DNA of 64,000 bases. Origin: Patescibacteria group bacterium (lineage in GTDB: Bacteria > Patescibacteriota > Minisyncoccia > Phycocordibacterales > UBA9973). The translations under genes and the position numbers were made by a program. The stretch lies in assembly GCA_028868715.1 (NCBI GenBank), contig JAGWUB010000002.1, positions 145,716 to 209,715 of the forward strand, given 5' to 3'. Under the pieces are notes generated by a model. The model saw only the letters and a list, made by a program, of their open reading frames with translations. It searched no databases and had not been told where the DNA came from. Below are positions 5,323 through 63,639 of the stretch, piece after piece; position 1 is the first letter of the stretch; every line of letters begins with the position of its first letter.

Positions 5323-6414
5323 TTATATTCCCTCTTTTTTGAGTTCTTCTATGAGTTCGCGAGATTTGCGAGAAATTTTTGAAGGAAGTTTTATATTTAA
5401 TTTAATTAACAAATCTCCCCTTTTGTTTTTTCCAGCCGGAACACCTTTGCCTCGCACTCGCAGAATTTCATTTATGGAAACACCTTCAGGTATAGTAACT
5501 TCTATTTTCCCATCAAGGGTCTCTATGGGATATTTCATTCCAAGTAAAGCGTCTGAGAGTTTTAAATTTAAATCCATCACTAAATCATTGCCCTCGCGCT
5601 TAAACATCGCGTGAGGCGCTACATTTATTTTAATATAAAGATCTCCCGAAGTTCCTTTAGACATAGCTTCCCCCATTCCGGTCATCCTGATCATCTCCCC
5701 GTCACGTATACCTGCTGGGATAACGATTGAGATTTCTTCTTCACGGCGCAGTACGCCTTTCCCTTTACAGGTTTCGCATCTTTCTTTTGGAACCTCTCCC
5801 GAGCCATAACAAGTCTCACATACTTTTGTACTAGAAATAGTGCCGAGGAATGATCTCTTGGTCTCATGAATTTTTCCTTGACCGTTGCAAGTCTTACAAG
5901 TTTCCATTTTCGTACCAGCTTTGGCGCCAGAACCCTTACAGACGAGGCAACTAGAAGTTTTCGTAATTAAAATTTTTCTATTTGTCCCAAAAACAGAATC
6001 AGAAAAAGAAATTTGAATTTCGGTTGAAATATCTCTTCCTCGTCGCGCTTGCGCTCTGCCACCGCCACCAAAGAAATCACTAAAGATATCATTTAAATTT
6101 CCAAAATCAAAATCTGCAGAACCACCTTGAAAACCACCTGCGAAATTTGAGAAATCAAAGCCCTCAAAGCCTCCAGCACCCTGCCCGTGGGCCTGACTCA
6201 TATTTTCATATTGTGAGCCAAATTGGTCATATTTAGAGCGTTTAGTGTCATCTGACAGCACTTGATAGGCCTCATTTACTTGCTTAAATTTAGCTTCGTT
6301 TCCCTCTTTTTTATCAGGGTGATATTTGTGCGCCAACTTGTAAAAAGCCTTCTTGATTTCTTCCTTGGAAGCGTTCTTTTTTACTCCTAATGTTTCGTAA
6401 TAATCTTTACTCAT
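5323..6414 (-). CDS. dnaJ: Chaperone DnaJ
   Basis: J-domain (YYETLGV...HPDK), Gly/Phe-rich linker and four CxxCxGxG zinc repeats. Confidence 0.9.
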
Positions 6415-6462
6415 GGTTGTATTATACTTATAAGTCTGAGGTGGTCAAGAAAAATTAATTTT

Positions 6463-7899
6463 CTAGATCATGGGTTCTGGTTCTTGCGAGTTTGTTGCCT
6501 TACCTTCGATTATTTTCTTTTCTTCAACGCTGCGAATAATCGTCGCTTCTTCTTCGGCAATGAGTTTGGCCGCATCATCTTTTGATATTGCATATTTTCT
6601 GCGAGAGGCCGCGATTATTTCATCCCTATATGAAGGATGTGTTGCTGGAAGAACTCGAAGGGTTTCGGCAGAAAATGGGTCGTAGGATTCTCCATCAATG
6701 GTCATTTTTATATAAAACTCTCCAATGGCTAAATTGATCATATCTTTCACGTCAAAGATTGGTGCAAACTCTGGTTTGAGCTTAACTGCGTCCTCCCCGC
6801 CGACGCGAAAGCAAATCAAGGCTCCAGTATTTCCCAGTACTGCCTGCTGAACCTTGGGCATAAGCTGACCGACGTATTGATGAGCGATAGTTAAATTGAG
6901 TCCGTATTTTCGAGCCTCAGATAAAATATTTTCGAAGGTTTGAGTTACGATATTCTGAAACTCATCTATATATAAGTAAAAATCTACTCTATCTTTTTCA
7001 GGAATACTAGCGCGCTCCATTCCAGCTTGTTTTATTTTGGTCAAAAACATTGAACCTAAAAAACTAGAATTTTCTTCGCCAAGGCGACCCTTGGAAAGAT
7101 TAATTAAAATAATTTTTCCCTCATTCATTAGTTTACTGATATCTATTTTGTTTTGTTTTTGGCCGAAAATATTACGCAGCGATGGATCCGAAAGAAATTG
7201 TCCGAGTTTATTCACTAGTGGAATGATAGCGTCAGTATCAAATTTTTCAGACCAGTCAGCAAATTCAATTGCAAAGAATCTTTTCACCATATCGTCGGTA
7301 ATATACTCTACGACTTTCTGGCGATAATTTCTGTCAGTCAACATTGAAATCATTCCGCGCATAGTAGCGTGAGGATAATCGAGCAATGCTAAACAGGTAA
7401 AGCGAAAGACGTGCTCAAGTCTTGGAGTCCAGTTGGCTCCAAACTGTTTCTGGAAAACTTCAATGAGTCCTTGAGTCAATTGAAACTTAAACAATGGATC
7501 AACGTTTGCCAGCGGATTAAAGGATGCGGGAAAGTCGACATCTGTAGGGTCTATGATACAAACATCTTCAATTCGCTCGCGAGGTATATAGTCGAGCATG
7601 GCATCAATCACATCTCCGTGCGGGTCAATCAAACATAGTCCGTGATTGTAAGACACATCTTGTCTTAAAAACAATTCCATCAGCTTTGTCTTGCCGACAC
7701 CTGACTTCCCAACTATATAAAGATGGCGTCTTCTATCTACCCTCTTGATACCAAAAACGAACTTCTTTTCTTCCAGCGAAGCCACATAATTTGTGCGTCC
7801 AATAAAAGAAACCTCTTCGGGATTAACTTTTCCAAAGACTGGTAATTCTGGTGGAGGCGGAGCATATTTAATTATTTGTACTCGATTTCCCTTAGGCAT
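6463..7899 (-). CDS. VirD4/TrwB-like (T4SS coupling-protein family, AAA_10/TraG-D_C type) cytoplasmic ATPase, paralog 1
   Basis: RRRHLYIVGKSGVGKT Walker A, LYIDEFQN Walker B, SEARKYGLNLTIAHQ motif; no transmembrane segments. Confidence 0.65.
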   Translation of the reverse strand: MPKGNRVQIIKYAPPPPELPVFGKVNPEEVSFIGRTNYVASLEEKKFVFGIKRVDRRRHLYIVGKSGVGKTKLMELFLRQDVSYNHGLCLIDPHGDVIDAMLDYIPRERIEDVCIIDPTDVDFPASFNPLANVDPLFKFQLTQGLIEVFQKQFGANWTPRLEHVFRFTCLALLDYPHATMRGMISMLTDRNYRQKVVEYITDDMVKRFFAIEFADWSEKFDTDAIIPLVNKLGQFLSDPSLRNIFGQKQNKIDISKLMNEGKIILINLSKGRLGEENSSFLGSMFLTKIKQAGMERASIPEKDRVDFYLYIDEFQNIVTQTFENILSEARKYGLNLTIAHQYVGQLMPKVQQAVLGNTGALICFRVGGEDAVKLKPEFAPIFDVKDMINLAIGEFYIKMTIDGESYDPFSAETLRVLPATHPSYRDEIIAASRRKYAISKDDAAKLIAEEEATIIRSVEEKKIIEGKATNSQEPEPMI

Positions 7900-7905
7900 A
7901 ATATT

Positions 7906-9846
7906 TTATTCTTCTAAAATTTTCCGTAACACGTCTTCGGGAACTTCTTTGATGTTGCCTTTTGTTAATGGTGGTTCAGCAACTTTTTTATCTATTAAAT
8001 TTTTTAATTTATCCATATCTTCAGCACTCGCAGCCTTATCTTTCTTTGGAGTAATATCCTTCATTTTGTTTTTTAGTGAGTCGAGTGATACAGGGGCTGG
8101 CGCTTTTTCAGGCATTTTGTGCTGTAATACAGTTTCCTTAACCTCTGGTGCTGAAAATACTTTTTTTAACGCCTCCTTCAATCCAAAATTTTCTTTACTA
8201 ACAGGTTTAGGCACATTAGAGTTATGCATAGGTCTTTCAGGGTATGTATCAGCTTCCTCTGGTCCTCCATTTTTTTGTTTAAATTCTATACCTAGATCAG
8301 CTAATGGTTTAAAAAATTTTGTCTCATCTTGTTTAATTTGGTTGATTGATCCTTTGATTGGTTTTATTTCTCCGGATTTTATTTTCGCTATACAGTCTTT
8401 GCAATAAACTGGCCTTCCGGGTTCGGGTTTGAAAGGCACTGTGGTTTCTTTTTTACAAGAAGAACAAACTGCAGGAAATTTTCCCACACTGCCACCGCCG
8501 GTATCGGCATCACCAAGCGACATCCCGCTCCAATTATTTATTTCTCGTTCTACATCTTCCTTGGAGCGACAGTATAATTCACGTGAAGACTTTATGACAG
8601 CATCTTCAATTTCTTTATTTCCAGACTTTACCATCTGTGGTAGGGTTTTGGCTGAAAAAGGACGTGAAGTGACACCATCAATCATTAATTTTAAATAAAT
8701 TTTATAGTTTGGTAAATTGACTATATCCTGCGGGGTAAATTCTGGGTCAAATTCTTTTTCCAAAAATTCTGCATCATCCGAACCTACGCGAAAAATTATC
8801 ATTGTACCGACGTTGCCAAAGACTGCATCCCTCACCGCTGTACTTTTTTCAGAAACAAGCTGAGCGGTATATTGATGAGCAACGGTAAGGTTGAGTCTAT
8901 ACTTTCTAGCTTCCGACAAGATACCAGCGAAAGCGTCTGTCACAAAGTTTTGAAACTCATCAACATATAAGTAGAAATCTTTACGGTCATCTTCGGGTAT
9001 ACGAACACGTTCCATGGCAGCTAGCTGAATCTTTGTAATTATCATGCCACCCAAGAGTGCGGAGTTGTCTTCACCAATGCGTCCTTTGGAAACATTCACT
9101 AGGAAAATTTTTCCTTCGTTCATCATATTAAAAATGTTTATGGTGCTTTTCTGCTGACCGACAACATTTCTGATAATTGAAGTGGAGAGAAATTGTCCGA
9201 CTTTATTTTGAATCGGAGCAATAGCTTCATTTCTAAATTTATCTTGCCAAGCTTCATATTCGTGTACCCAAAAAGCCTTGATAACGGGATCCTTTAAGTT
9301 TGCAATTATTTTCTGGCGATAATCTTTGTCCACCAACATTCTAGGAATTCCAAGCATGGTGGAGCCCGGAGTATCAAGGAGCGCCAAAATCGTATTGTTT
9401 AAAATATATTCCATTCGGGCACTCCAAGCATTCGCCCAAATTTTGGTAAAAATTCCCATGAGTCCAGAAGCCACCAAATGTTTATATTGCGGATCCACGA
9501 GCTCAAGTACGTTAAATCCTATGTGATGATCGGCGTCGGCAGGATTAAAATAAATTACATCTTTTACTCGATGTGGTGGAATAGCTGACAAAACTGCTTC
9601 GACATTTTCTCCATGAGGATCAACCATACATACTCCGTCACCGTTCTGGATATTTTGGATAATCATATTAAACATCAGCACCGATTTACCAGTACCAGAC
9701 TTTCCGAGAATATAAACATGCTGACGCCTGTCTTTGCGCTTGATGCCAAAGAGCTGATTTTTGTCTCGATAAGTAGTGATTCCGAGATAAGTGAGCTCTC
9801 TATTAAAGGGTATTTCTGAAATTTCCATATGCCTCAATTGTAGCAA
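7906..9846 (-). CDS. VirD4/TrwB-like ATPase, paralog 2, with a C-terminal CxxC-x17-CxxC zinc ribbon and a long disordered Lys/Pro/Glu-rich tail
   Basis: RRQHVYILGKSGTGKS, LYVDEFQNF, SEARKYRLNLTVAHQ; C-terminal CSSCKKETTVPFKPEPGRPVYCKDC. Lies immediately next to paralog 1 on the same strand. Confidence 0.65.
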   Translation of the reverse strand: MLQLRHMEISEIPFNRELTYLGITTYRDKNQLFGIKRKDRRQHVYILGKSGTGKSVLMFNMIIQNIQNGDGVCMVDPHGENVEAVLSAIPPHRVKDVIYFNPADADHHIGFNVLELVDPQYKHLVASGLMGIFTKIWANAWSARMEYILNNTILALLDTPGSTMLGIPRMLVDKDYRQKIIANLKDPVIKAFWVHEYEAWQDKFRNEAIAPIQNKVGQFLSTSIIRNVVGQQKSTINIFNMMNEGKIFLVNVSKGRIGEDNSALLGGMIITKIQLAAMERVRIPEDDRKDFYLYVDEFQNFVTDAFAGILSEARKYRLNLTVAHQYTAQLVSEKSTAVRDAVFGNVGTMIIFRVGSDDAEFLEKEFDPEFTPQDIVNLPNYKIYLKLMIDGVTSRPFSAKTLPQMVKSGNKEIEDAVIKSSRELYCRSKEDVEREINNWSGMSLGDADTGGGSVGKFPAVCSSCKKETTVPFKPEPGRPVYCKDCIAKIKSGEIKPIKGSINQIKQDETKFFKPLADLGIEFKQKNGGPEEADTYPERPMHNSNVPKPVSKENFGLKEALKKVFSAPEVKETVLQHKMPEKAPAPVSLDSLKNKMKDITPKKDKAASAEDMDKLKNLIDKKVAEPPLTKGNIKEVPEDVLRKILEE

Positions 9847-9899
9847 AAAAGAACCAAACTAAAAAGCCCCCAATCTGATAATAGAGGGCTTTTTAGAGA

Positions 9900-11816
9900 T
9901 TATGCTTTAGGAGTTTCTCCTTCTGGTGGAGTTTCTTTGAAGTCAGCGTCTTTGACTTCAGAAGGCTGTTCTTCGGGAGTCGAAGATTCTGAGCCTGCTG
10001 AGGGATTATCACCTCCTGCTTTGGCCATAGCTTCGCCTATCTTAGACATTTCAGTAGAAAGTTCTTCGGTCGCTTTTTTAATTGCTTCCGCGTCAGTGCC
10101 ATCTTTCAATCCTCTTAGTGCTGTAATCTTAGTATTTACCTCATCTTTTAATTCTGTTGGAATTTTTTCTTCATTGTCTTTTAATGCTTTTTCAGCAGTA
10201 TAGATAATCATTTCCGCGGTATTTTTAATCTCTACCACTTCTTTTTTCTTATTATCTTCTTCCGCATGAAGCTCAGCGTCGGCTTGCATTTTCTTAATAT
10301 CTTCATCTTTTAGTCCAGAGCTGGCTTCTATTTTAATTGATTGTGATTTTCCAGAAGCCTTGTCTTTTGCCGTGACATTCAAGATTCCGTTGGCGTCCAC
10401 ATCAAACATCACTTCAATCTGCGGAATACCCCTAGGTGCAGGTGGAACTCCATCTAATATAAATCTACCCAAGGACTTGTTGTCGCTCGCCATTGGGCGC
10501 TCACCTTGCACTATATGTATTTCCACGGAGGTTTGGTTGTCAGCAGCAGTAGAGAATGTCTGTGATTTACTAGAAGGAATAGTTGTATTGCGTTCTACTA
10601 GCTTCGTAGCCACTCCACCGAGAGTTTCAATGCCGAGTGAAAGTGGAATCACATCCAGCAAAAGCACATCGCGCACATCTCCTTGTAGCACACCAGCTTG
10701 TACAGCAGCACCGAGTGCTACGACTTCATCCGGATTGATAGAAAGGTTTGGAGTTTTGCCGAAAACTTTTTTCACTTCTTCTACTATTTTTGGCATTCTG
10801 GTTTGTCCTCCAACCATGATAATCTCATTCATGTCTTCCATCTTGAATCCACTTGCTGTCATCGCGCGCTTGGTTATTTCTATGGAGCGAGTTATGTATT
10901 CATCGGCAATAGCTTCGAGTTGAGCGCGAGTCATTTTCAAGAGTAAGTGCTGTGGACCTTCTGCAGTAGAAGTGATGAATGGAATATTTATTTCAGTTTC
11001 AATAGAGGTTGAAAGTTCTATTTTTGCTTTCTCCGCCGCCTCATCTAGGCGTTGCAATGCAAGCTTGTCTTTACGCACATCTATGCCCGAAGTCTTTTTA
11101 TATTCTTCAGCGATCCAACCTATAATCTTGTGATCAATATCACGACCCCCAAGATGACTATCTCCATCTGTAGATTTCACTTCAATGACATCATCGCCAA
11201 TCTCAAGAACCGAAACATCGAAAGTTCCGCCACCGAAGTCGTACACAACTATTTTTTCATTTTTCTTTTTATTAAATCCGTAAGCAAGTGCCGCCGCTGT
11301 CGGTTCATTGATTATACGTTTTACATCAAGTCCGGCGATAGCTCCAGCATCTTTGGTTGCTTTTCTTTGCGCATCGTTAAAATATGCTGGCACAGTGATG
11401 ACGGCTTCAGTTACTTTTTCCCCAAGCTTCGCTTCGGCGTCAGATTTCATTTTTCCTAAAATCATCGCCGAGATTTCTTCCGGTCGCATCCACTTATCTC
11501 CAATCTTTACCTCAACGCCTCCATTGGTGGATTTTTGAATTTTAAAAGATGCATTTTTTAAATCTTTCTGAACTTCTGGATCGTCAAAATTGTGACCCAT
11601 AAAGCGCTTGATACCATAAACAGTATTTTCTGGGTTTGTAACTGCTTGTCTTTTAGCTAAGAGTCCTACGAGCCTATCGCCATTTTTAGCGATAGAAACG
11701 ATGGATGGCGTCGTACGAGCACCTTCTATATTTTCTATAATCTTTGGCACACCGCCCTCAATGACAGCTACTGCCGAATTTGTTGTACCTAAGTCTATTC
11801 CTATTATTTTTGACAT
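9900..11816 (-). CDS. dnaK: Chaperone DnaK (Hsp70)
   Basis: [24 protein letters not shown] and the other canonical Hsp70 motifs; acidic C-terminal tail. Confidence 0.95.
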
Positions 11817-11883
11817 ATATTTTTTTGATTAATACCACGCTTTTGGCGAGGCATACTTATAATTAAATAATTTATTTGATTTG

Positions 11884-11913
11884 ACAAGTATTTAGTGGTC
11901 ACGAAATACTTGT
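11884..11913. promoter_or_regulatory. Perfect 10-N10-10 palindrome (ACAAGTATTT-N10-AAATACTTGT) in the divergent dnaK / PaaX-like promoter region; candidate operator
   Basis: Seen directly in the sequence. It overlaps TTGACA/TTGTCA -35-like hexamers that can serve both strands. Confidence 0.4.
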
Positions 11914-11943
11914 ATAAATAAGTATATATGATATGCTATATGC

Positions 11944-12459
11944 ATGTCAAGCAAAAAAGACTATTCTAAGAAAATATTAAAGATTTTAGGAAAAAAATCA
12001 GCCGTTTCCCTGCCAGATTTGGAGATATTGGGAGCTAGTAACAAGTATGCGATTACTCGCTCTTTGAAGGGCCTGCGGGAAGCTGGATTAATAGAAAATA
12101 TTTCCTCTCCGCAAAATGAATATGCCCGCCTCACAAAGGAGGGAAAGAAAAAAGTACATAGCCTAGAACTAGAAAATGACACGACGTTGGTAAATACATC
12201 TTGGGATGGATTTTGGAGAATTATTTTGCTTGATTTGCCTGAGTCAAGAAAAAGTGAACGCGAAAGTCTACGCTACCTTTTGAAAAAAGCTGGTTTCGTT
12301 TGCTTAAAAAATTCGGCTTGGATTTCTCCTTATCCATATGAACATCTTTTTATGAATATCAAAAAAGATCTCGGGCTTACGTCAGAGATGATGATCATCG
12401 TCACTCAATTTGTGGATGAAGAAACAAAAAAAGTCCTCTTTAGCTCTTTCGGTAAATAA
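11944..12459 (+). CDS. PaaX-family winged-helix transcriptional regulator
   Basis: WDGFWRIILLDLPESRKSERESLRYLLKKAGFVCLKNSAWISPYP matches the PaaX C-terminal signature (WDGxW..L..D.PE...R..LR..L...GF..LQ.SVWISP). N-terminal wHTH. Confidence 0.55.
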   Translation: MSSKKDYSKKILKILGKKSAVSLPDLEILGASNKYAITRSLKGLREAGLIENISSPQNEYARLTKEGKKKVHSLELENDTTLVNTSWDGFWRIILLDLPESRKSERESLRYLLKKAGFVCLKNSAWISPYPYEHLFMNIKKDLGLTSEMMIIVTQFVDEETKKVLFSSFGK

Positions 12460-12492
12460 TCCTATTTCAGCCATGGCTGAAATAGGACTTTA
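12459..12492. terminator. Perfect 26-nt palindrome between the convergent PaaX-like gene and grpE (bidirectional terminator)
   Basis: CCTATTTCAGCC-AT-GGCTGAAATAGG. Confidence 0.5.
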
Positions 12493-13080
12493 GTTTCCTG
12501 CCTTGTATTCATATACATTTACGCGAGCGGGACGGATTACCCTGTCGCCGAGCTTATAGCCCTTTTGGGTGACTTTTGCAATTTTATGATTTGCTTCTTT
12601 GTCATCGGTTGGCACTGTTTCAATTGACTCGTGCATATTTGGATCAAAGCTCTCACCAACACTGCCGATCTCCTTGACTCCATATTCTTCAAAAATATTA
12701 ATTAGCTGTGAATAAATATGCTGAATTCCTATCCGCCAATTCAAATCTACTTTCTCCCATAGTTCTTTATTTGAAAAAGCCATATTAAAACTATCGATTA
12801 CTGAAAGAAAACGAGTTAAGATGTGCTCACGCAAACTTTCGCTATAATTTGCCTTTCTCTCATCTTCTTGTTTTCTATAATTAGCAAAATCAGCTCGCTC
12901 TTTCTGCCAACCATTTAAGTACTCTGCTTTTTCAGCCTTAGCAACTTTTAAATCTGCCCGGAGTTTCTTTAAAGTCTTTTTTAAATCCTCTTCGCCGTCA
13001 TCGTTGAATTCAAATTCAACTATTTCATCCTCGGGTTCGTCTGGATTTTTTTTCTCTTCTTCGTCTTTCATAGTGAGCAT
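12490..13080 (-). CDS. grpE: Nucleotide exchange factor GrpE
   Basis: GrpE coiled-coil and beta domain (ESFDPNMHESIET, RPARV). Start is set at MLTMKDEE (13080); MKDEE at 13071 is equally possible. The longer ORF-track start would run through the upstream terminator hairpin. Confidence 0.85.
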   Translation of the reverse strand: MLTMKDEEEKKNPDEPEDEIVEFEFNDDGEEDLKKTLKKLRADLKVAKAEKAEYLNGWQKERADFANYRKQEDERKANYSESLREHILTRFLSVIDSFNMAFSNKELWEKVDLNWRIGIQHIYSQLINIFEEYGVKEIGSVGESFDPNMHESIETVPTDDKEANHKIAKVTQKGYKLGDRVIRPARVNVYEYKAGN

Positions 13081-13085
13081 TTTAA

Positions 13086-13118
13086 CACAAAAAAGCCCCT
13101 TCGAAAAGGGGCTTTTTA
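13086..13118 (-). terminator. Rho-independent terminator after rpsI (also usable on the + strand)
   Basis: AGCCCCTT-CGAA-AAGGGGCT flanked by A- and T-runs. Confidence 0.55.
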
Positions 13119-18669: not shown

Positions 18670-18671
18670 AA

Positions 18672-19853
18672 TTACATTTTATTTAAAAAACGATTAATGT
18701 AAACAGAATCAATAGTGAGAAAAGCATTAAAGATAGCGTCTTTGTCAAAAACTGCAATGTTGTGCAAATTTTGAACATTGAGAAAAATGATCTGAAATTT
18801 AGATTCAGTCAGGGTATATTGATTAAATTGTTCTGTCTTGATTACTTCTCCAAAAAATTCTGCCAAATCTTTATCTACGGTAATATACACAAATGCAGGA
18901 ATGGAAATATCATTGGAAAGATTTGCTAAAGACTCCTGGAATTTACCCAACCACTCTGATTTTAGTTTTATTATGGCTGGCTCTAGTACGTTTGCAGTTG
19001 AGGTAGCCGCATGCCCATCCTTGAAAAGTGAGATAAGCGACTTGGCCTCACCGAGAGAAGAATTCATTGTAGCTGCGATTGTACGTATCATGAAATTAAT
19101 ACCGAGCGGAAAAGACGTTGACTCACGTAAAGTATTATTTTTTACCATGGAAATATCTGTAATTTCTCCACCGATATTAATCAGGAGAAAATTTTCTTGA
19201 TGGGTAAATAAATCGCGTACTACTGTAAAAGCAGCCACTGTAAACGGAGCGAATTTTATTTCTCTAAAAGAAAAGTGCTTTTCCACTATTTCTTCAATTT
19301 TTTTACAGACTTGTTCTTCACTCATTGATACATGAATAGTCATCTCGAGTTCAGTTGTTTTTTTATTCAATGGCTCGGCGGTTTCATAGCCATTCAAGGT
19401 TATTTTAATATTCTTTAATTCAATTAGTCGCAAAGAATTACCAACATGGGCATATTTCTTCAAATACTCTTCCTTTAAAAGTACTATTTCTTTTTGTATC
19501 AAGCTGTCTGCGAGTTTGGAGGTAAACACAAATGGTGTGTTTTTTTGCATACTAATAACCCGAGTTTGGGAAACATGCCAAGGTGATGAAAAAATACAAA
19601 AAATCTTACTTGGTGCGCCTAAATGTTTTGCATAAATTTTATCAGAAACAATTTCTAGGGCTTTTAGGGTTAAAAATAAAAATCTGTCTATCTCGATTTT
19701 ATCTTCAAGAATTATGGGTTCACGAACAGATGTAATTATTTTAGGAACTCCAGATTTTTGCATATAAAAAAGTGCCGCCTTCACAGAAGAAGAGCCTATG
19801 TCAAAAACTAGTGCCAGTTCATCTTTCTTTTTTGGTAAAGAGAAAATACCCAT
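18672..19853 (-). CDS. Actin-fold ATPase, PilM-like (or FtsA-like)
   Basis: N-terminal ALVFDIGSSSVKAALF phosphate-1 motif and a second INIGGEITDISMV motif. Confidence 0.5.
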   Translation of the reverse strand: MGIFSLPKKKDELALVFDIGSSSVKAALFYMQKSGVPKIITSVREPIILEDKIEIDRFLFLTLKALEIVSDKIYAKHLGAPSKIFCIFSSPWHVSQTRVISMQKNTPFVFTSKLADSLIQKEIVLLKEEYLKKYAHVGNSLRLIELKNIKITLNGYETAEPLNKKTTELEMTIHVSMSEEQVCKKIEEIVEKHFSFREIKFAPFTVAAFTVVRDLFTHQENFLLINIGGEITDISMVKNNTLRESTSFPLGINFMIRTIAATMNSSLGEAKSLISLFKDGHAATSTANVLEPAIIKLKSEWLGKFQESLANLSNDISIPAFVYITVDKDLAEFFGEVIKTEQFNQYTLTESKFQIIFLNVQNLHNIAVFDKDAIFNAFLTIDSVYINRFLNKM

Positions 19854-25612: not shown

Positions 25613-26641
25613 TTAGATTGCAGAGTAAAGTCCGTTTTTGTCACTCTTGAAATATTTTGGATTTGCAAGATTTACCAAAATTGTATTTTTCTTGAAGTAC
25701 CTTTCTTTGTTTACTTTGGTGATAACGTCATTTTTGGAAAGAGGTCCCTCTCTTTTTAGAATGTCTCTGATTACTTCGCGAGCAATACCAGCCTTATAAC
25801 CCCATTCTGCAAGAGCATACATTCCCCTACCAACCAAAACGAATCTAGAATCTTTGATAAGCTCATTGTGGCAAGTCGCGTAATGAACTTTTTTATTAAA
25901 TGTTTTTGAGATAGAATTGGCCACTTCTTTAAAGTGCATAGGGGAACCGTGACGTCTCATGACTAGGAAAGCATAATCCTTTACCCCGCGAGTGCGGACG
26001 TTTGGTGAGGAAGCCTTTCCCCATTCACCAAATGGGTTTTTAGCGATGTCCTTAGACATAGAGAGCCATCTTTTAGCAATCTCTTCATCTCTATATTGTT
26101 CAGAAATATCCTTCATGTGATCAAAGAATCGTTTAATCATTTCGGTTTCAGGAATAAGATCTTCGTCGTCTAGGCTAGCGTAAAGTTTCTTGAGGGTCTG
26201 GTGTACTTTTTCTCCAACCTCATCGTCCACACTAAAACGCGCATGAAAATGTTCATCCTCACGATGTTTTTTAAATGATTCGCCTAGGGTTAAAAAAAAG
26301 TGGATATGGTTTTGAGTTGATTTGTCTTTGGAAATGTATGGTAAAAGATCATGCTCCGCAACTATAGCGCCGAGTTTTTTCATTAATTGTTTCAATTCCT
26401 CAAAAGCTGCTTGCTCTGCTTTGTAGGCATCTGACTTTTTTATAGCCGCTAGAGCCACGTCTTCGATCTGACGAACGCGCTCTCTGGTGATCTTATATTT
26501 CTTACCAATTTCTTCTAGAGTTTTCCTTTTACCGTCAGGTGTTAAGCCAAAACGATTCATAATAACATCAAAAGATCGATCGGTGAGGTGAGAAATTATT
26601 TTTTTAGTGACTTTTTTAGGTTTAAAAGATATTGTTTGCAT
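25613..26641 (-). CDS. Protein with an N-terminal sigma-70 region-4-like HTH and a C-terminal HARE-HTH domain
   Basis: LTDRSFDVIMNRFGLTPDGKRKTLEEIGKKYKITRERVRQIE resembles sigma region 4.2; DSRFVLVGRGMYALAEW matches the HARE-HTH signature known from the RNAP delta subunit. Confidence 0.55.
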   Translation of the reverse strand: MQTISFKPKKVTKKIISHLTDRSFDVIMNRFGLTPDGKRKTLEEIGKKYKITRERVRQIEDVALAAIKKSDAYKAEQAAFEELKQLMKKLGAIVAEHDLLPYISKDKSTQNHIHFFLTLGESFKKHREDEHFHARFSVDDEVGEKVHQTLKKLYASLDDEDLIPETEMIKRFFDHMKDISEQYRDEEIAKRWLSMSKDIAKNPFGEWGKASSPNVRTRGVKDYAFLVMRRHGSPMHFKEVANSISKTFNKKVHYATCHNELIKDSRFVLVGRGMYALAEWGYKAGIAREVIRDILKREGPLSKNDVITKVNKERYFKKNTILVNLANPKYFKSDKNGLYSAI

Positions 26642-30016: not shown

Positions 30017-32743
30017 CTAAACCTCCGAGCGAGGACGTACTTGTATGGGACTTTTTATTTTACCCGATCTTCCTCCAGCGTTACCTTTTTTACTTTCTAT
30101 TACTAGTTCATCATTTTTGACACTGACAATTACTTTGTCGCCTTTTTTAATCTTGTTGGAAATTATATGCGAAGCGACTGGATTTAAAATTTTATTTTGA
30201 ATCAGACGGTTGAGTGGTCTCGCGCCATAATGTGGATCATAGCCCTCTTTCGCTAAGTAAGAGAAGGCATCATTGGAAATTTCAAACCCAATACCTTTGG
30301 CCGTTAGGCGATCTTGCACCACTTTTACTCGTAATTTTACTATTTCAGCAATTGCCTCGTGTGACAAGACATCAAAAACAATAATCTCATCGAGTCTGTT
30401 TAAGAATTCCGGACGGAAATTGTCTTTCAAGGATTCCATAATTTTTTCCTTCATATTGGTATAATTTTGTTTATCGGAATTATTAGAAAAACCAATGGAT
30501 TCCATTTTCTCCACAAACTGCGAACCGATATTACTAGTCAAGATAATGATAGTATTTTTAAAATTAACTACTCTGCCTTTTCCATCCGTAAGTCGTCCCT
30601 CATCTATGACCTGTAGAAGCATGTTAAAAACCTCGGGATGAGCTTTCTCAATCTCATCGAAAAGTACTACCGCATAAGGTCGGTGACGAACGGCTTCGGT
30701 AAGTTGCCCAGCTTCATCGTAGCCGACATATCCTGGTGGAGAACCAATAAGTTTGGATATTGAGTGTCGTTCCATGTATTCAGACATATCCACGCGGATA
30801 ATTGCCTTATCGTCATTAAACATAAATTGTCCCAAGGTTTTAGTTAGTTCTGTTTTACCTACTCCAGTTGGACCCAAGAAGATAAAGGAGCCGATAGGTC
30901 TATTCGGATCTCCGATACCTGCACGAGAACGTCGTATCACGTCTGCCACACGCTTTATAGCCTCGTCTTGACCGATAACTCTCTTCTTTAATTCTGCCTC
31001 CATCTTTTCAAGCTTGGCGCGTTCCTCTTCTAACATCTTGGTGAGTGGTATACCCGTCCAGCGAGCGACTACTTCGGCAATATCTTCAGCAGTAATTTCT
31101 TCCTTGAGTATTCGACGTGATTTCTGTAATTTTTTTAGTCGTGCAAGTTTTACTTCCAGATCTTTTTTTAGCGCTGGAATCTTGCCATAACGGATTTCGG
31201 CAACCCGAGAAAGGTCGGACTTCATTTCTGCATCTTCGGCCTCGAGACGAATTGTCTCGAGTTCTTTTTTGATTCCTCGAATTTCAACCACAATTGATTT
31301 TTCGTTATTCCATTTTAACTCTAGCTCTTTGGTTTTTTCGTATAGGTTTGCAATTTCTTTATCGACTTCTTTTAGTCTGCCTTTTATTTCTTTTTCCTTT
31401 ACTTTTAGATCTTTATTTTTAGTTCCACTCAAAACCGAGGCTTCTTTTTTGAGAGCTTCTTTTTCAATTTCTAAACGTCGAATTTTCCTATGCGCATCTT
31501 CTAAAACTGGTGGCTTGTTTTCCAGCATTATTTTAAGAGAAGAAGAAGCTTCATCTATCAAGTCCACCGCCTTGTCCGGCAAAAATCTATTAGTGATATA
31601 TCTAGCAGAGAGATTGACCGCGGAGATTATGGCATCGTCGGTAATACGAACACCATGAAAGAGTTCATATCTTTCTTTTAATCCCCGAAGTATAGTAATG
31701 GCATCTTCTACAGAAGGTTCATCTATATACACTGGTTGAAAACGTCGAGCTAAGGCCGGATCTTTTTCAATGTGTTTTTGATACTCACGAAGAGTCGTCG
31801 CACCGATGGCTCGTAATTCTCCACGCGACAGTACTGGCTTTAGCATATTAGAAGCATCCATCGTGCCTTCTGCTCCACCTGCACCGACGATAGTGTGGAT
31901 CTCATCAATAAAAAGAATTACTTTTCCATCAGAGCGTTCTATCTCCTTCATAATACCTTTTAACCGCTCTTCAAACTCTCCGCGATATTTTGTACCAGCA
32001 ACCAATAAGCCTAAATCGAGCGAGACTAGTTCTTTATCTTTGAGTGATTCTGGAACATTTCCTTTTACGATGCGTTCTGCTAGCCCTTCCACTACAGCTG
32101 TCTTTCCGGTGCCAGCCTCACCGATTAATATCGGATTGTTTTTTGTTCTCCTTGAGAGTATCTGCATAATGCGCAATATTTCATTGTCTCGACCAATAAC
32201 AGGATCGAGCTTGTCTTCTTTGGCTAGTTTGGTTAAATTGCGAGTATATTTTAAAATTAATTTAAATTTCCTTGGCTCCCCTACGTCGGTGATATTTTGT
32301 CTACGAAGTTCTTCTAAAACTTTTAGAACAGAATCTTTGTGAATTCTAAATCGAGCCAATGTCTCTCGTGCCTCACTGGCAACTTCGAGAATAGCTATAA
32401 AAAGATGCTCAGTAGAGACAAAGTCATCCTTCATGTATTCGGCCAGCTTGGCTGATTGCTCTATCACCTGAGCTAGGTCTGGATTGAGGTAAATCTGATA
32501 GGCCGGTGAAATAGTGCTGTGAGATTCTGGTAATTCAATCAATTCTAAAACGGAATCAGTCAAAAGCATTGTATCTATCTCCAATTTATCTAAAATAGAA
32601 TTCACCATACTCTCCTCGGCAAGCAGTAGCGCTGCGAGTAGGTGCAGTGAAGAAACGTGGTTAACTCCACGCTCGATTGCCAGCTCGTGAGCTTTCTTTA
32701 TGGCATCCTTGGCTTTAGTTGTAAATTTATTTAATGGTGGCAT
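30017..32743 (-). CDS. clpB: Chaperone ClpB (AAA+ disaggregase)
   Basis: Clp N-domain, two AAA+ modules ([16 protein letters not shown]), a long coiled-coil M-domain, and an extra C-terminal tail. Confidence 0.9.
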
Positions 32744-33325: not shown

Positions 33326-33328
33326 AGG

Positions 33329-34462
33329 TCAATTATACCACTTTTTTAATTTAAACAAAATTTGAGAAAAAGCTTTTAAAGTATAGTCGATGTCAGCCTT
33401 GGTTGTATCTCTGCCTAGAGAAAAACGTAATGATCCATCTGTTTCCTTGATATCTTTGTTTATAGCTTTTATGACGTGGGAGGCTTTACCATCCCCACTC
33501 TTGCAGGCACTTTTCGCTGAAGCCATTATACCCAGTGCTGACAATTCAATCACCAAAAGGTCACTCGGTATGTTTGGAATAGTTATATTAATGTTATTTG
33601 GCAATCTGTGGTTCAAATCGCCATTCCTCACAATTTTAAATGGAATCTTTGATAATTTTGTAAAAAAATAATCTCGCAGTTTTTTCAAACGTAAGACTTC
33701 TTTGTCTTTTATTTTTTGTGTCAATTTCAAAGCTTTAGAAAATTTAACTATCGCTTCTAGGTTTTCTGTCCCTGGACGCAAGCCCATTTCTTGATCCCCG
33801 CCATAAAACAAGCTTACGAGTGGTACAGACTTTTTTTTATAAAGTACCCCTACCCTGCCAGCGCCCAAAATCTTTGAACCAGAAATTGTCAGCATATCTA
33901 CTCCAAGCTTTTCGACATTGAGATCTAAATAATTCACTGCCTGTACGGCATCAGTGTGAAAAAAAATATTATTGATTTTGTTTTGCTTTTTGTAGTGTCG
34001 AATCTCTTTTGCAATTTCTTTTATCGGCTGAATTGTGCCAATTTCATTATTTGCATACATGACTGAAATTAGTACCGTATTTTTCTTTATGGCTTTTTTT
34101 ATTTTTTTAGGATCAACTATCCCTGTGGCTTCTACTTCTACTATTGATATTTGAGCAAGTTTTCTTTTTTCTAGCATCTGGAAAGTTTCTATAACCGAGG
34201 CATGTTCAATATTAGTGGTGATGATATGTGGCAACCCTTTTTCCTTGGAGGACAAAACCACACCTTGAATTGCAAGATTATTACTTTCTGTGCCACCACT
34301 GGTAAAAATTATTTCACTTGCTCGAGCACCTAAAATATTTGCGGTTTCAACCCGTGCCTTTTCCAGTTTTTTCTTGGCCTCTACCCCAAATTCATGAATA
34401 GAGCTTGGGTTTGGAGAAACGCTAGCAGCGTAATCTAGATATATTTTATTTGATTTGGGCAT
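33329..34462 (-). CDS. Cysteine desulfurase (NifS/IscS family)
   Basis: Class V aminotransferase fold with YLDYAAS...TSGGTESNN...SGSKILG (PLP-binding lysine). Confidence 0.85.
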   Translation of the reverse strand: MPKSNKIYLDYAASVSPNPSSIHEFGVEAKKKLEKARVETANILGARASEIIFTSGGTESNNLAIQGVVLSSKEKGLPHIITTNIEHASVIETFQMLEKRKLAQISIVEVEATGIVDPKKIKKAIKKNTVLISVMYANNEIGTIQPIKEIAKEIRHYKKQNKINNIFFHTDAVQAVNYLDLNVEKLGVDMLTISGSKILGAGRVGVLYKKKSVPLVSLFYGGDQEMGLRPGTENLEAIVKFSKALKLTQKIKDKEVLRLKKLRDYFFTKLSKIPFKIVRNGDLNHRLPNNINITIPNIPSDLLVIELSALGIMASAKSACKSGDGKASHVIKAINKDIKETDGSLRFSLGRDTTKADIDYTLKAFSQILFKLKKWYN

Positions 34463-63565: not shown

Positions 63566-63639
63566 GAGTATATTATACCATATTTTATGTTATAATAAAT
63601 TTTGAGTCGTGGTAAATTATTCGTTTAAATAATAAAAAT

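Follow-up and report, generated by a model that had tools for sequence, protein, structure and literature searches.

The locus described here, a candidate 30-bp dyad-symmetric operator between dnaK and a divergent gene for a short PaaX-like protein, has its closest described counterparts in two dnaK repressor systems, HrcA/CIRCE (controlling inverted repeat of chaperone expression) and HspR/HAIR (HspR-associated inverted repeat), and in the repressor PaaX. We analyzed it in a stretch of 64,000 nucleotides of contig JAGWUB010000002.1 of a Patescibacteria genome (assembly GCA_028868715.1), which we call the window, and in related loci. Patescibacteria account for much of bacterial diversity and are very poor in regulators; to our knowledge, no transcription factor regulon has been worked out in this group.

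HrcA is a dedicated repressor whose long inverted-repeat operator lies at or just downstream of a sigma70/sigmaA-type dnaK promoter, and whose autoregulated gene is linked to grpE and dnaK. The present locus would share these traits, with dedicated repression and autoregulation as our proposal. It differs from HrcA/CIRCE in several respects: the regulator has no HrcA domain and matches only PaaX_M in Pfam, CIRCE is a 9-N9-9 repeat whereas the dyad is contiguous over 30 bp and different in sequence, hrcA comes first in its operon whereas the regulator gene is divergent, and the regulon is apparently dnaK only, with no sign of GroEL dependence. HspR, which belongs to the MerR family and represses the dnaK operon in Actinobacteria, Helicobacter and Campylobacter, is likewise focused on dnaK, encoded beside it, autoregulated and in charge of a small regulon, as we propose for the regulator studied here. 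However, HspR has a MerR-type helix-turn-helix in place of the winged helix-turn-helix (wHTH) and Cas2-like domain of our protein, in which there is no MerR domain; its gene stands at the end of the dnaK operon and is not divergent, and HAIR (CTTGAGT-N7-ACTCAAG) differs from the dyad in sequence. The feedback of HspR through DnaK as co-repressor would be the most plausible analogy for signal sensing at this locus. CtsR and RheA, heat-shock repressors that are intrinsic thermosensors, are similar in being small, dedicated and autoregulated and in working without a separate sensor protein, but they have different folds, operators (a direct heptad repeat for CtsR) and targets (clp genes and hsp18).

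PaaX, the phenylacetyl-CoA-responsive repressor of paa operons (TIGR02277/COG3327; PDB 8A39, 3L09), has an N-terminal wHTH and a central Cas2-like PaaX_M domain in common with the regulator. It represses transcription at divergent promoters in competition with RNA polymerase, is subject to autoregulation, and has TGATTC-N27-GAATCA as its operator (PMC9493321); the dyad studied here is contiguous over 30 bp. The C-terminal helical phenylacetyl-CoA-sensing domain of PaaX is absent from our protein, which has 171 aa compared to about 305 (305 residues in 8A39), and its neighbours include no paa genes but dnaK, grpE, ribosomal protein genes, TraD-like ATPase genes and dnaJ.

A conserved dyad between dnaK and a divergent regulator gene

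The two genes and the site between them lie in the window as follows.

9900-11816, minus strand: dnaK (Hsp70), the presumed target; Pfam HSP70, E 1e-244
11884-11913, no strand: 30-bp dyad-symmetric candidate operator; window form ACAAGTATTTAGTG-GT-CACGAAATACTTGT
11944-12459, plus strand: short PaaX-like regulator gene, 171 aa; wHTH at about residues 1-78, Cas2-like PaaX_M domain at about 85-168

A preliminary description of this DNA had pointed to a PaaX-family wHTH protein encoded divergently from dnaK, to a perfect 10-N10-10 palindrome in the promoter region shared by both genes, and to TTGACA/TTGTCA hexamers overlapping that palindrome. All three were borne out. The protein matches Pfam PaaX_M and its model combines a wHTH with a Cas2-like domain; the 127-bp spacer between the genes (11817-11943) contains the perfect inverted repeat ACAAGTATTT-AGTGGTCACG-AAATACTTGT at 11884-11913; and TTGACA (plus strand, 11881-11886) and TTGTCA (minus strand, 11887-11882) are both present at its left edge. 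The pattern ACAAGTATTT-N10-AAATACTTGT has no other match in the window with up to three mismatches (0.01 matches expected from shuffled sequences), and a matrix made from 65 orthologous sites found only the operator itself at 8 bits or more in the 64 kb. Perfect inverted repeats with 10-bp arms are nevertheless common in the window. Because many of them are supplied by terminators, perfection alone is weak evidence, and the significance of the operator is its conservation across species, not the perfection of the repeat.

A scan of species-representative genomes gave 80 loci (582 kb in all). dnaK is divergent and directly upstream of the regulator gene in 70 of these, the remainder being mostly cut by contig ends, and all 70 dnaK/regulator intergenic regions analyzed contain the 30-bp dyad, with the family consensus RCAAGTATTTCGYG-RY-CRCGAAATACTTGT. 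A PaaX box reportedly described by Ferrandez et al. 2000, WWTRTGATTCGYGWT, is said to resemble the half-site in a TTCGYG core. When the loci were searched with a matrix from unique sites, 78/80 had exactly one site of at least 10 bits. A DNA-only metagenome scan with a 23-nt core pattern returned a further 120 stretches. The regulator gene lies within 400 bp of the site in 95 of them, and another eight represent this type of locus too but end at a contig boundary or contain an inserted IS200-like gene, which brings the total to 103; dnaK is divergent from the regulator gene in most metagenome loci too, and none of these loci (771 kb) has a second operator site. The stretches without a regulator gene were discarded as chance matches in high-GC or cyanobacterial HIP1-like sequence, or as palindromes before paralogues. 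The gene pair and the dyad thus occur in about 180 related Patescibacteria loci, once per locus. Mean identity across species is 76% for the regulator, which is unusual for a transcription factor, with 84% for DnaK and 64% for GrpE.

The dyad ends 30-31 nt from the regulator ATG in 68/79 loci, and it lies anywhere from 27 to about 1700 nt away from the dnaK ATG. The long gaps hold one to four small open reading frames (ORFs), every one co-directional with dnaK, an arrangement that looks like an operon headed by the control region.

Two kinds of inserted genes were seen around the site. In loci L052 (86-370), L072 (3606-3869) and L078 (3602-3868), the gap between operator and dnaK contains a conserved ORF (MIDPTKIDFNQLPKKF..., about 90 aa) that matches nothing in Pfam and runs in the dnaK direction; other species have different small ORFs there, often membrane-like. 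An IS200/Y1-transposase-like gene (Pfam Y1_Tnp) lies between the operator and the regulator gene in L082 (10130-10782), L095, L184, L107 (1157-1867) and L123 (575-1288); the insertion in L082 is just past the regulator's first codons and has a flanking hairpin.

The divergent gene encodes a short protein with a predicted PaaX-like fold

PaaX_M (PF20803) matches residues 85-162 of the regulator with an E value of 5.1e-20. PaaX_C gave no Pfam match at E up to 0.1, and the protein ends at residue 171, directly after PaaX_M. Against the PaaX equivalog model TIGR02277 it scored 30.7 bits, far from the cutoff of 264.55. A sequence/profile search of the PDB gave no significant match, and no PaaX at E up to 1.

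We obtained a confident AlphaFold2 model with a predicted local distance difference test score (pLDDT) of 91.5 from an alignment of 92 sequences that included distant representatives; close orthologues alone gave a pLDDT of 51. The N-terminus of the model is a wHTH (helices 4-17, 23-28, 34-46 and 65-78, with wing strands 50-54 and 59-63), and its C-terminal part is ferredoxin-like and Cas2-like, in the order beta-alpha-beta-beta-alpha-beta-alpha. The best PDB matches found by Foldseek were PaaX from E. coli W (8A39, E 8e-7, 170 aligned columns) and then Jannaschia 3L09; MarR-family proteins came next and matched in the wHTH part only. In the PDB, PaaX was recovered by fold comparison only. The model indicates that the regulator is PaaX-like in fold but not a PaaX orthologue, because it ends at the point at which the ligand-binding C-terminal domain of PaaX would follow.

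Residues Y35, A36, T38, R39, S40 and K42 of the recognition helix are invariant. Among 2113 homologues, the top 120 are 75-100% identical and come without exception from Patescibacteria, Paceibacterota or Nomurabacteria. The protein's only cysteine, Cys120 (in GFVCLK, codon 12301-12303), a possible thiol switch, is conserved in 115/120 orthologues, and most paralogues have R, K or Q in its place. The Cas2 model PF09827 did not match the regulator at E up to 0.1, and there are no cas genes among the annotated neighbours, a statement that does not extend to arrays of clustered regularly interspaced short palindromic repeats (CRISPR), for which no search was made.

Palindromes upstream of paralogous genes

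The regulator orthogroup is part of a large family of PaaX_M proteins that are short, at about 170-200 aa. Clustering at 50% leaves 2654 representatives of this family, and only 13 of these have a score below 1e-30. All seven paralogous short PaaX-like genes that we examined are preceded, at a distance of up to about 110 nt, by a related palindrome whose CGGCCG-type centre has TTT and AAA on its two sides (for example TTTCATAGTTTTTCGCGGCCGCGAAAAACTATGAAA). No conserved partner gene of the paralogue subfamily was found among the contexts checked. Since such palindromes precede paralogues in unrelated contexts, the dyad is best explained as the predicted binding site of the protein encoded next to it, and this is our main argument for linking the two.

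Paralogues with an upstream palindrome of their own include those in L195 (4601-6761), L167 (225-800) and L203-L207, and the one in L195 follows the genes for LemA and an M48 (HtpX-like) peptidase. Many paralogues carry the source label 'CRISPR-associated endonuclease Cas2', which is probably a misannotation; a paralogue compared to PF09827 scored 23.1 bits, below the cutoff of 23.8.

Predicted promoters overlap the dyad

We called promoters at the dyad from sigma70-like hexamers together with their conservation across species, and obtained three.

11921-11950, minus strand: predicted distal dnaK promoter (P-dnaK-distal, 'L3'); -35 TTGACA at 11950-11945, 18-nt spacer, -10 TATACT at 11926-11921
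11859-11887, minus strand: predicted proximal dnaK promoter (P-dnaK-proximal, 'L1'); -35 TTGTCA at 11887-11882, 17-nt spacer, -10 AATTAT at 11864-11859; 9/12
11910-11944, plus strand: predicted regulator promoter ('R2'); -35 TTGTAT at 11910-11915, 16-nt spacer, -10 TATGCT at 11932-11937, 6 nt to the ATG (A = 11944)

The distal dnaK promoter is the best promoter-like match of the region (11/12) and also its best-conserved promoter: 71/72 loci have TTGACA-N18-TATAYT. Codons 1-3 of the regulator gene overlap its -35, and 76/79 loci retain TGTCAA at these first codons even though just 22% of Ser codons are TCA and dnaK shows variation at its second codon. The start predicted for this promoter is at about 11913-11914, at the right edge of the dyad, which would place the operator at about +1 to +30. 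The proximal dnaK promoter has the outer end of the left operator arm as its -35; in other loci it reads TTGCWA-N17-TATAAT, and 52/79 pass a consensus test. The outer end of the right arm likewise serves as the -35 of R2, which interleaves with the distal dnaK promoter on the opposite strand. The geometry of R2, TTGTMW-N16/17-TAnnnT-N6-ATG, was found in 42/79 loci by a strict test, with a fixed distance from the -10 to the ATG, and the regulator mRNA would be leaderless. Leaderless starts appear to prevail in the window genome: at least 19 of the 57 window genes have a TAnnnT hexamer (TATAAT-like, in many cases with an extended TG) whose end is 6-8 nt from the ATG, and Shine-Dalgarno-like motifs precede only about six of the 57.

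The preliminary description had proposed the plus-strand TTGACA (11881-11886) as the -35 of the regulator gene. This hexamer turned out to be specific to the window, and the conserved promoters are those listed above. We gave it less weight because most other loci have a weaker sequence there, such as TTAGCA (judged by eye, uncounted), and because the right-arm promoter keeps its fixed leaderless geometry.

A GC-rich hairpin-like element (AACCCCGATTATCGGATCGGGATTT, or AAACCCGACG...GTCGGGTCCC...CGTCGGGATT) is conserved in the dnaK leader of a subset of species, between the proximal promoter and the ATG (L008, L009, L016, L038, L041, L043 and L046; also L024, L047 and L055). The window lacks this element, which might be an RNA thermometer or a repetitive extragenic palindromic (REP)-like element.

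A proposed repressor circuit at dnaK

We consider it fairly probable that the 171-aa protein is an autoregulated repressor dedicated to dnaK, acting through the 30-bp dyad. The best-supported model is that of a functional, dnaK-dedicated analogue of HrcA/CIRCE or HspR/HAIR that would come from an unrelated protein family. The regulator would be a dimeric wHTH repressor with the Cas2-like domain as its dimerization module, and the dimer would bind the dyad at 11884-11913 inside a compact bidirectional control region. There, the left end of the dyad would form the -35 of one dnaK promoter and the right end that of the regulator's leaderless promoter, and the whole dyad would occupy about +1 to +30 of the second, near-consensus dnaK promoter, whose -35 overlaps the regulator start codon. 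Given this overlap with all three promoters, one bound dimer, or a pair of dimers, could block them all and switch off dnaK and the regulator together, resulting in negative autoregulation. Release of the repressor, presumably upon proteotoxic stress, would induce both genes. The regulon would be essentially dnaK, plus small genes co-transcribed with it in some species, and candidate triggers are titration by or with DnaK, intrinsic thermolability (by analogy) or the orthogroup-specific Cys120.

Several points weigh against this proposal. All statements on binding, on the sign of regulation, on transcription starts and on the inducing signal are inferred, and the responsiveness to stress is deduced solely from the identity of the target gene. 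The dyad is more tightly tied to the regulator gene than to dnaK, which leaves room for pure autoregulation. The lack of an operator at grpE, dnaJ and clpB means that this is not a general heat-shock regulon. Finally, promoter-like hexamers are easily found in a region as AT-rich and palindromic as this one: we counted 8 promoter-like sites, and 8.1 in shuffled sequences. Because the scan finds no excess over shuffles, the promoter calls draw on cross-species conservation only.

Alternatives to a repressor operator

We considered four other explanations of the dyad, one of which concerns RNA. The invariant positions of the dyad are symmetric (C2/G29, T9/A22, G12/C19 and G14/C17), and the symmetry extends to the 2-nt centre. 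The arms pair in 80.9% of cells compared to 82.3% in shuffles, with a covariation score of 0.159 compared to 0.168; at pair 13-18 the combinations CG, TA, CA and TG all occur, as often as independent variation would predict, and 40/65 sites have no pairing between positions 7 and 24. The arms therefore vary independently, without covariation, and we conclude that the dyad is a DNA operator rather than an RNA hairpin; symmetric invariant positions together with independent arms are what a site for a dimeric DNA-binding protein shows, and not a hairpin kept by selection. A role of the dyad as a 5'-terminal hairpin of the dnaK mRNA (thermometer, stabilizer or attenuator) was rejected for this lack of covariation between the arms, and we give it hardly any credence. 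In its favour we counted that a transcript from the distal dnaK promoter would start with the palindrome and that CIRCE acts at the level of mRNA as well as DNA. However, neither the pairing nor the covariation score exceeds the shuffled values, symmetry to a 2-nt centre leaves no room for a hairpin loop, the dyad is not followed by a T-run, and the distance from the dyad to the dnaK start is variable.

The palindrome might instead be the autoregulatory operator of the PaaX-like gene only, next to a dnaK gene that is syntenic but not coupled to it. This would agree with the fixed 30-31 nt to the regulator ATG as opposed to 27 to about 1700 nt to dnaK, and with the palindromes that paralogues in unrelated contexts also bear upstream. 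Yet the best-conserved promoter (71/72) reads toward dnaK and starts at the dyad edge, a second dnaK-directed promoter takes the left arm as its -35, all genes inserted between the site and dnaK are co-directional with dnaK, and the divergent pairing is kept in about 180 loci; moreover, the TGTCAA constraint on the regulator codons is hard to explain without a leftward promoter. We therefore regard uncoupled autoregulation as unlikely. It is quite unlikely, too, that the protein binds the dyad as an activator or dual regulator of dnaK. The known dedicated dnaK regulators of such architecture are, as far as we know, all repressors. The dyad does sit at about -33 to -62 of the proximal dnaK promoter, a position used by some class II activators, but its placement over the -35 of two promoters and the start region of a third is the typical geometry of steric repression, and the characterized PaaX represses by competing with RNA polymerase (PMC9493321). 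The dyad might also be nothing but back-to-back -35/UP elements of divergent promoters, given that the outer arms have TTG motifs serving as -35 and the inner arms are A/T-rich like UP elements, or it might be bound by a different, unlinked factor. Promoter elements leave unexplained why the most invariant positions (G12, G14, C17 and C19) lie, strictly symmetric, in the GC-rich centre. Also against this reading are the related palindromes that precede paralogous regulator genes in unrelated contexts, and a site that adjoins the regulator gene in all loci except a few with an IS200-like insertion. Taken as one, these last two versions appear very improbable, and a repressor operator is the reading we retain.

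grpE, dnaJ and clpB lack the operator, and no CIRCE was found

The remaining chaperone genes and the hairpins next to them are located as follows.

5323-6414, minus strand: dnaJ, 3.5 kb downstream of dnaK, with its own promoter
9861-9894, minus strand: terminator-like hairpin after dnaK, AAAAAGCCC...GGGCTTTTT, with a long loop; read from the sequence and putative
12460-12487, no strand: bidirectional terminator hairpin for the regulator gene and grpE; 12-bp stem with 5 GC pairs
12490-13071, minus strand: grpE, Pfam GrpE, E 6.5e-40; convergent with the regulator gene, 31 bp past its stop codon
13096-13111: rpsI/grpE terminator hairpin that can form on both strands
30017-32743: clpB, with its own promoter

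No operator site was found at grpE, dnaJ, clpB or elsewhere in the window and the related loci (582 kb and 771 kb), and grpE has none in any locus. CIRCE, searched as TTAGCACTC-N9-GAGTGCTAA with up to three mismatches, gave 0 matches in the window and 0 matches in 1.42 Mb, comprising the window and 200 loci with their dnaK and grpE upstream regions. A crude motif scan for HrcA-like ORFs gave spurious matches only, in a search that covered the recovered loci and not whole genomes.

These results bear on the remaining suggestions of the preliminary description. The absence of CIRCE upstream of dnaK and grpE was as it had stated. The idea of an alternative heat-shock operator-repressor pair held in part: there is a conserved dyad tied to the PaaX-like gene, lying over the predicted promoters of both genes, with dnaK as partner in about 180 loci and no CIRCE, but the wider heat-shock regulon, with the palindrome at other chaperone genes, had to be dropped, as the site is absent upstream of grpE, dnaJ and clpB and occurs in a single copy per locus. 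Similarly, dnaK, dnaJ and grpE had been described as dispersed, each with its own terminators; dnaJ lies 3.5 kb away with its own promoter, whereas grpE is not dispersed but convergent with the regulator gene at a distance of 31 bp and shares a terminator with it.

For grpE, a separate extended -10 promoter (TGtTAAAAT-N7-ATG) follows the rpsI terminator, and owing to that terminator at 13096-13111 the gene lies outside the upstream ribosomal-protein/rpoA operon. The hairpin after dnaK was not flagged by our terminator scan because its loop is longer than 8 nt; given this hairpin, dnaK would be monocistronic in the window genome.

Novelty and wider meaning

A full-text literature search found no account of a PaaX-like dnaK regulator or of such an operator in Patescibacteria, with incomplete coverage, so that a prior description is possible. 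We class a dedicated chaperone-gene repressor with a palindromic operator as a known type, and the protein family and the operator as new. The candidate circuit, consisting of regulator, operator, three promoters and target, can be read from DNA sequence alone and is conserved across hundreds of uncultivated species, and a synthetic gene and a 30-bp oligonucleotide would suffice to test it, without culture of the organism. If it is as proposed, a new protein family joins the short list of bacterial chaperone repressors (HrcA, HspR, CtsR and RheA), a large family now labelled 'hypothetical', 'PaaX' or 'Cas2' gains a function, and genomes of Patescibacteria gain a real promoter and leaderless-mRNA architecture. 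More tentatively, and with somewhat less than even confidence, we suggest that a short factor of the PaaX/Cas2 fold took over the role of HrcA or HspR, as a dedicated and autoregulated dnaK repressor, in a large patescibacterial clade (Paceibacteria including Nomurabacteria) and founded a new class of chaperone regulators, with an activity maybe set by DnaK or by Cys120 as a thiol switch. The short PaaX-like proteins would in that case form a major family of autoregulated transcription factors of the candidate phyla radiation (CPR), with a common TTT-CGG/CCG-AAA type of operator.

Further features of the window

Examples of the leaderless pattern are at these positions.

6415-6450: upstream of dnaJ
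13072-13090: upstream of grpE
18670-18690, 33326-33345 and 63566-63585: further examples

Between dnaK and dnaJ, on the minus strand (6463-9828), lie two paralogous genes for TraD/TrwB-like ATPases (type IV coupling protein or HerA-type), the larger of which carries a treble-clef zinc finger. Farther along, at 25613-26641 on the minus strand, a gene encodes a 342-aa protein of unusual architecture that combines an N-terminal sigma-70 region 4 with a HARE-HTH domain.

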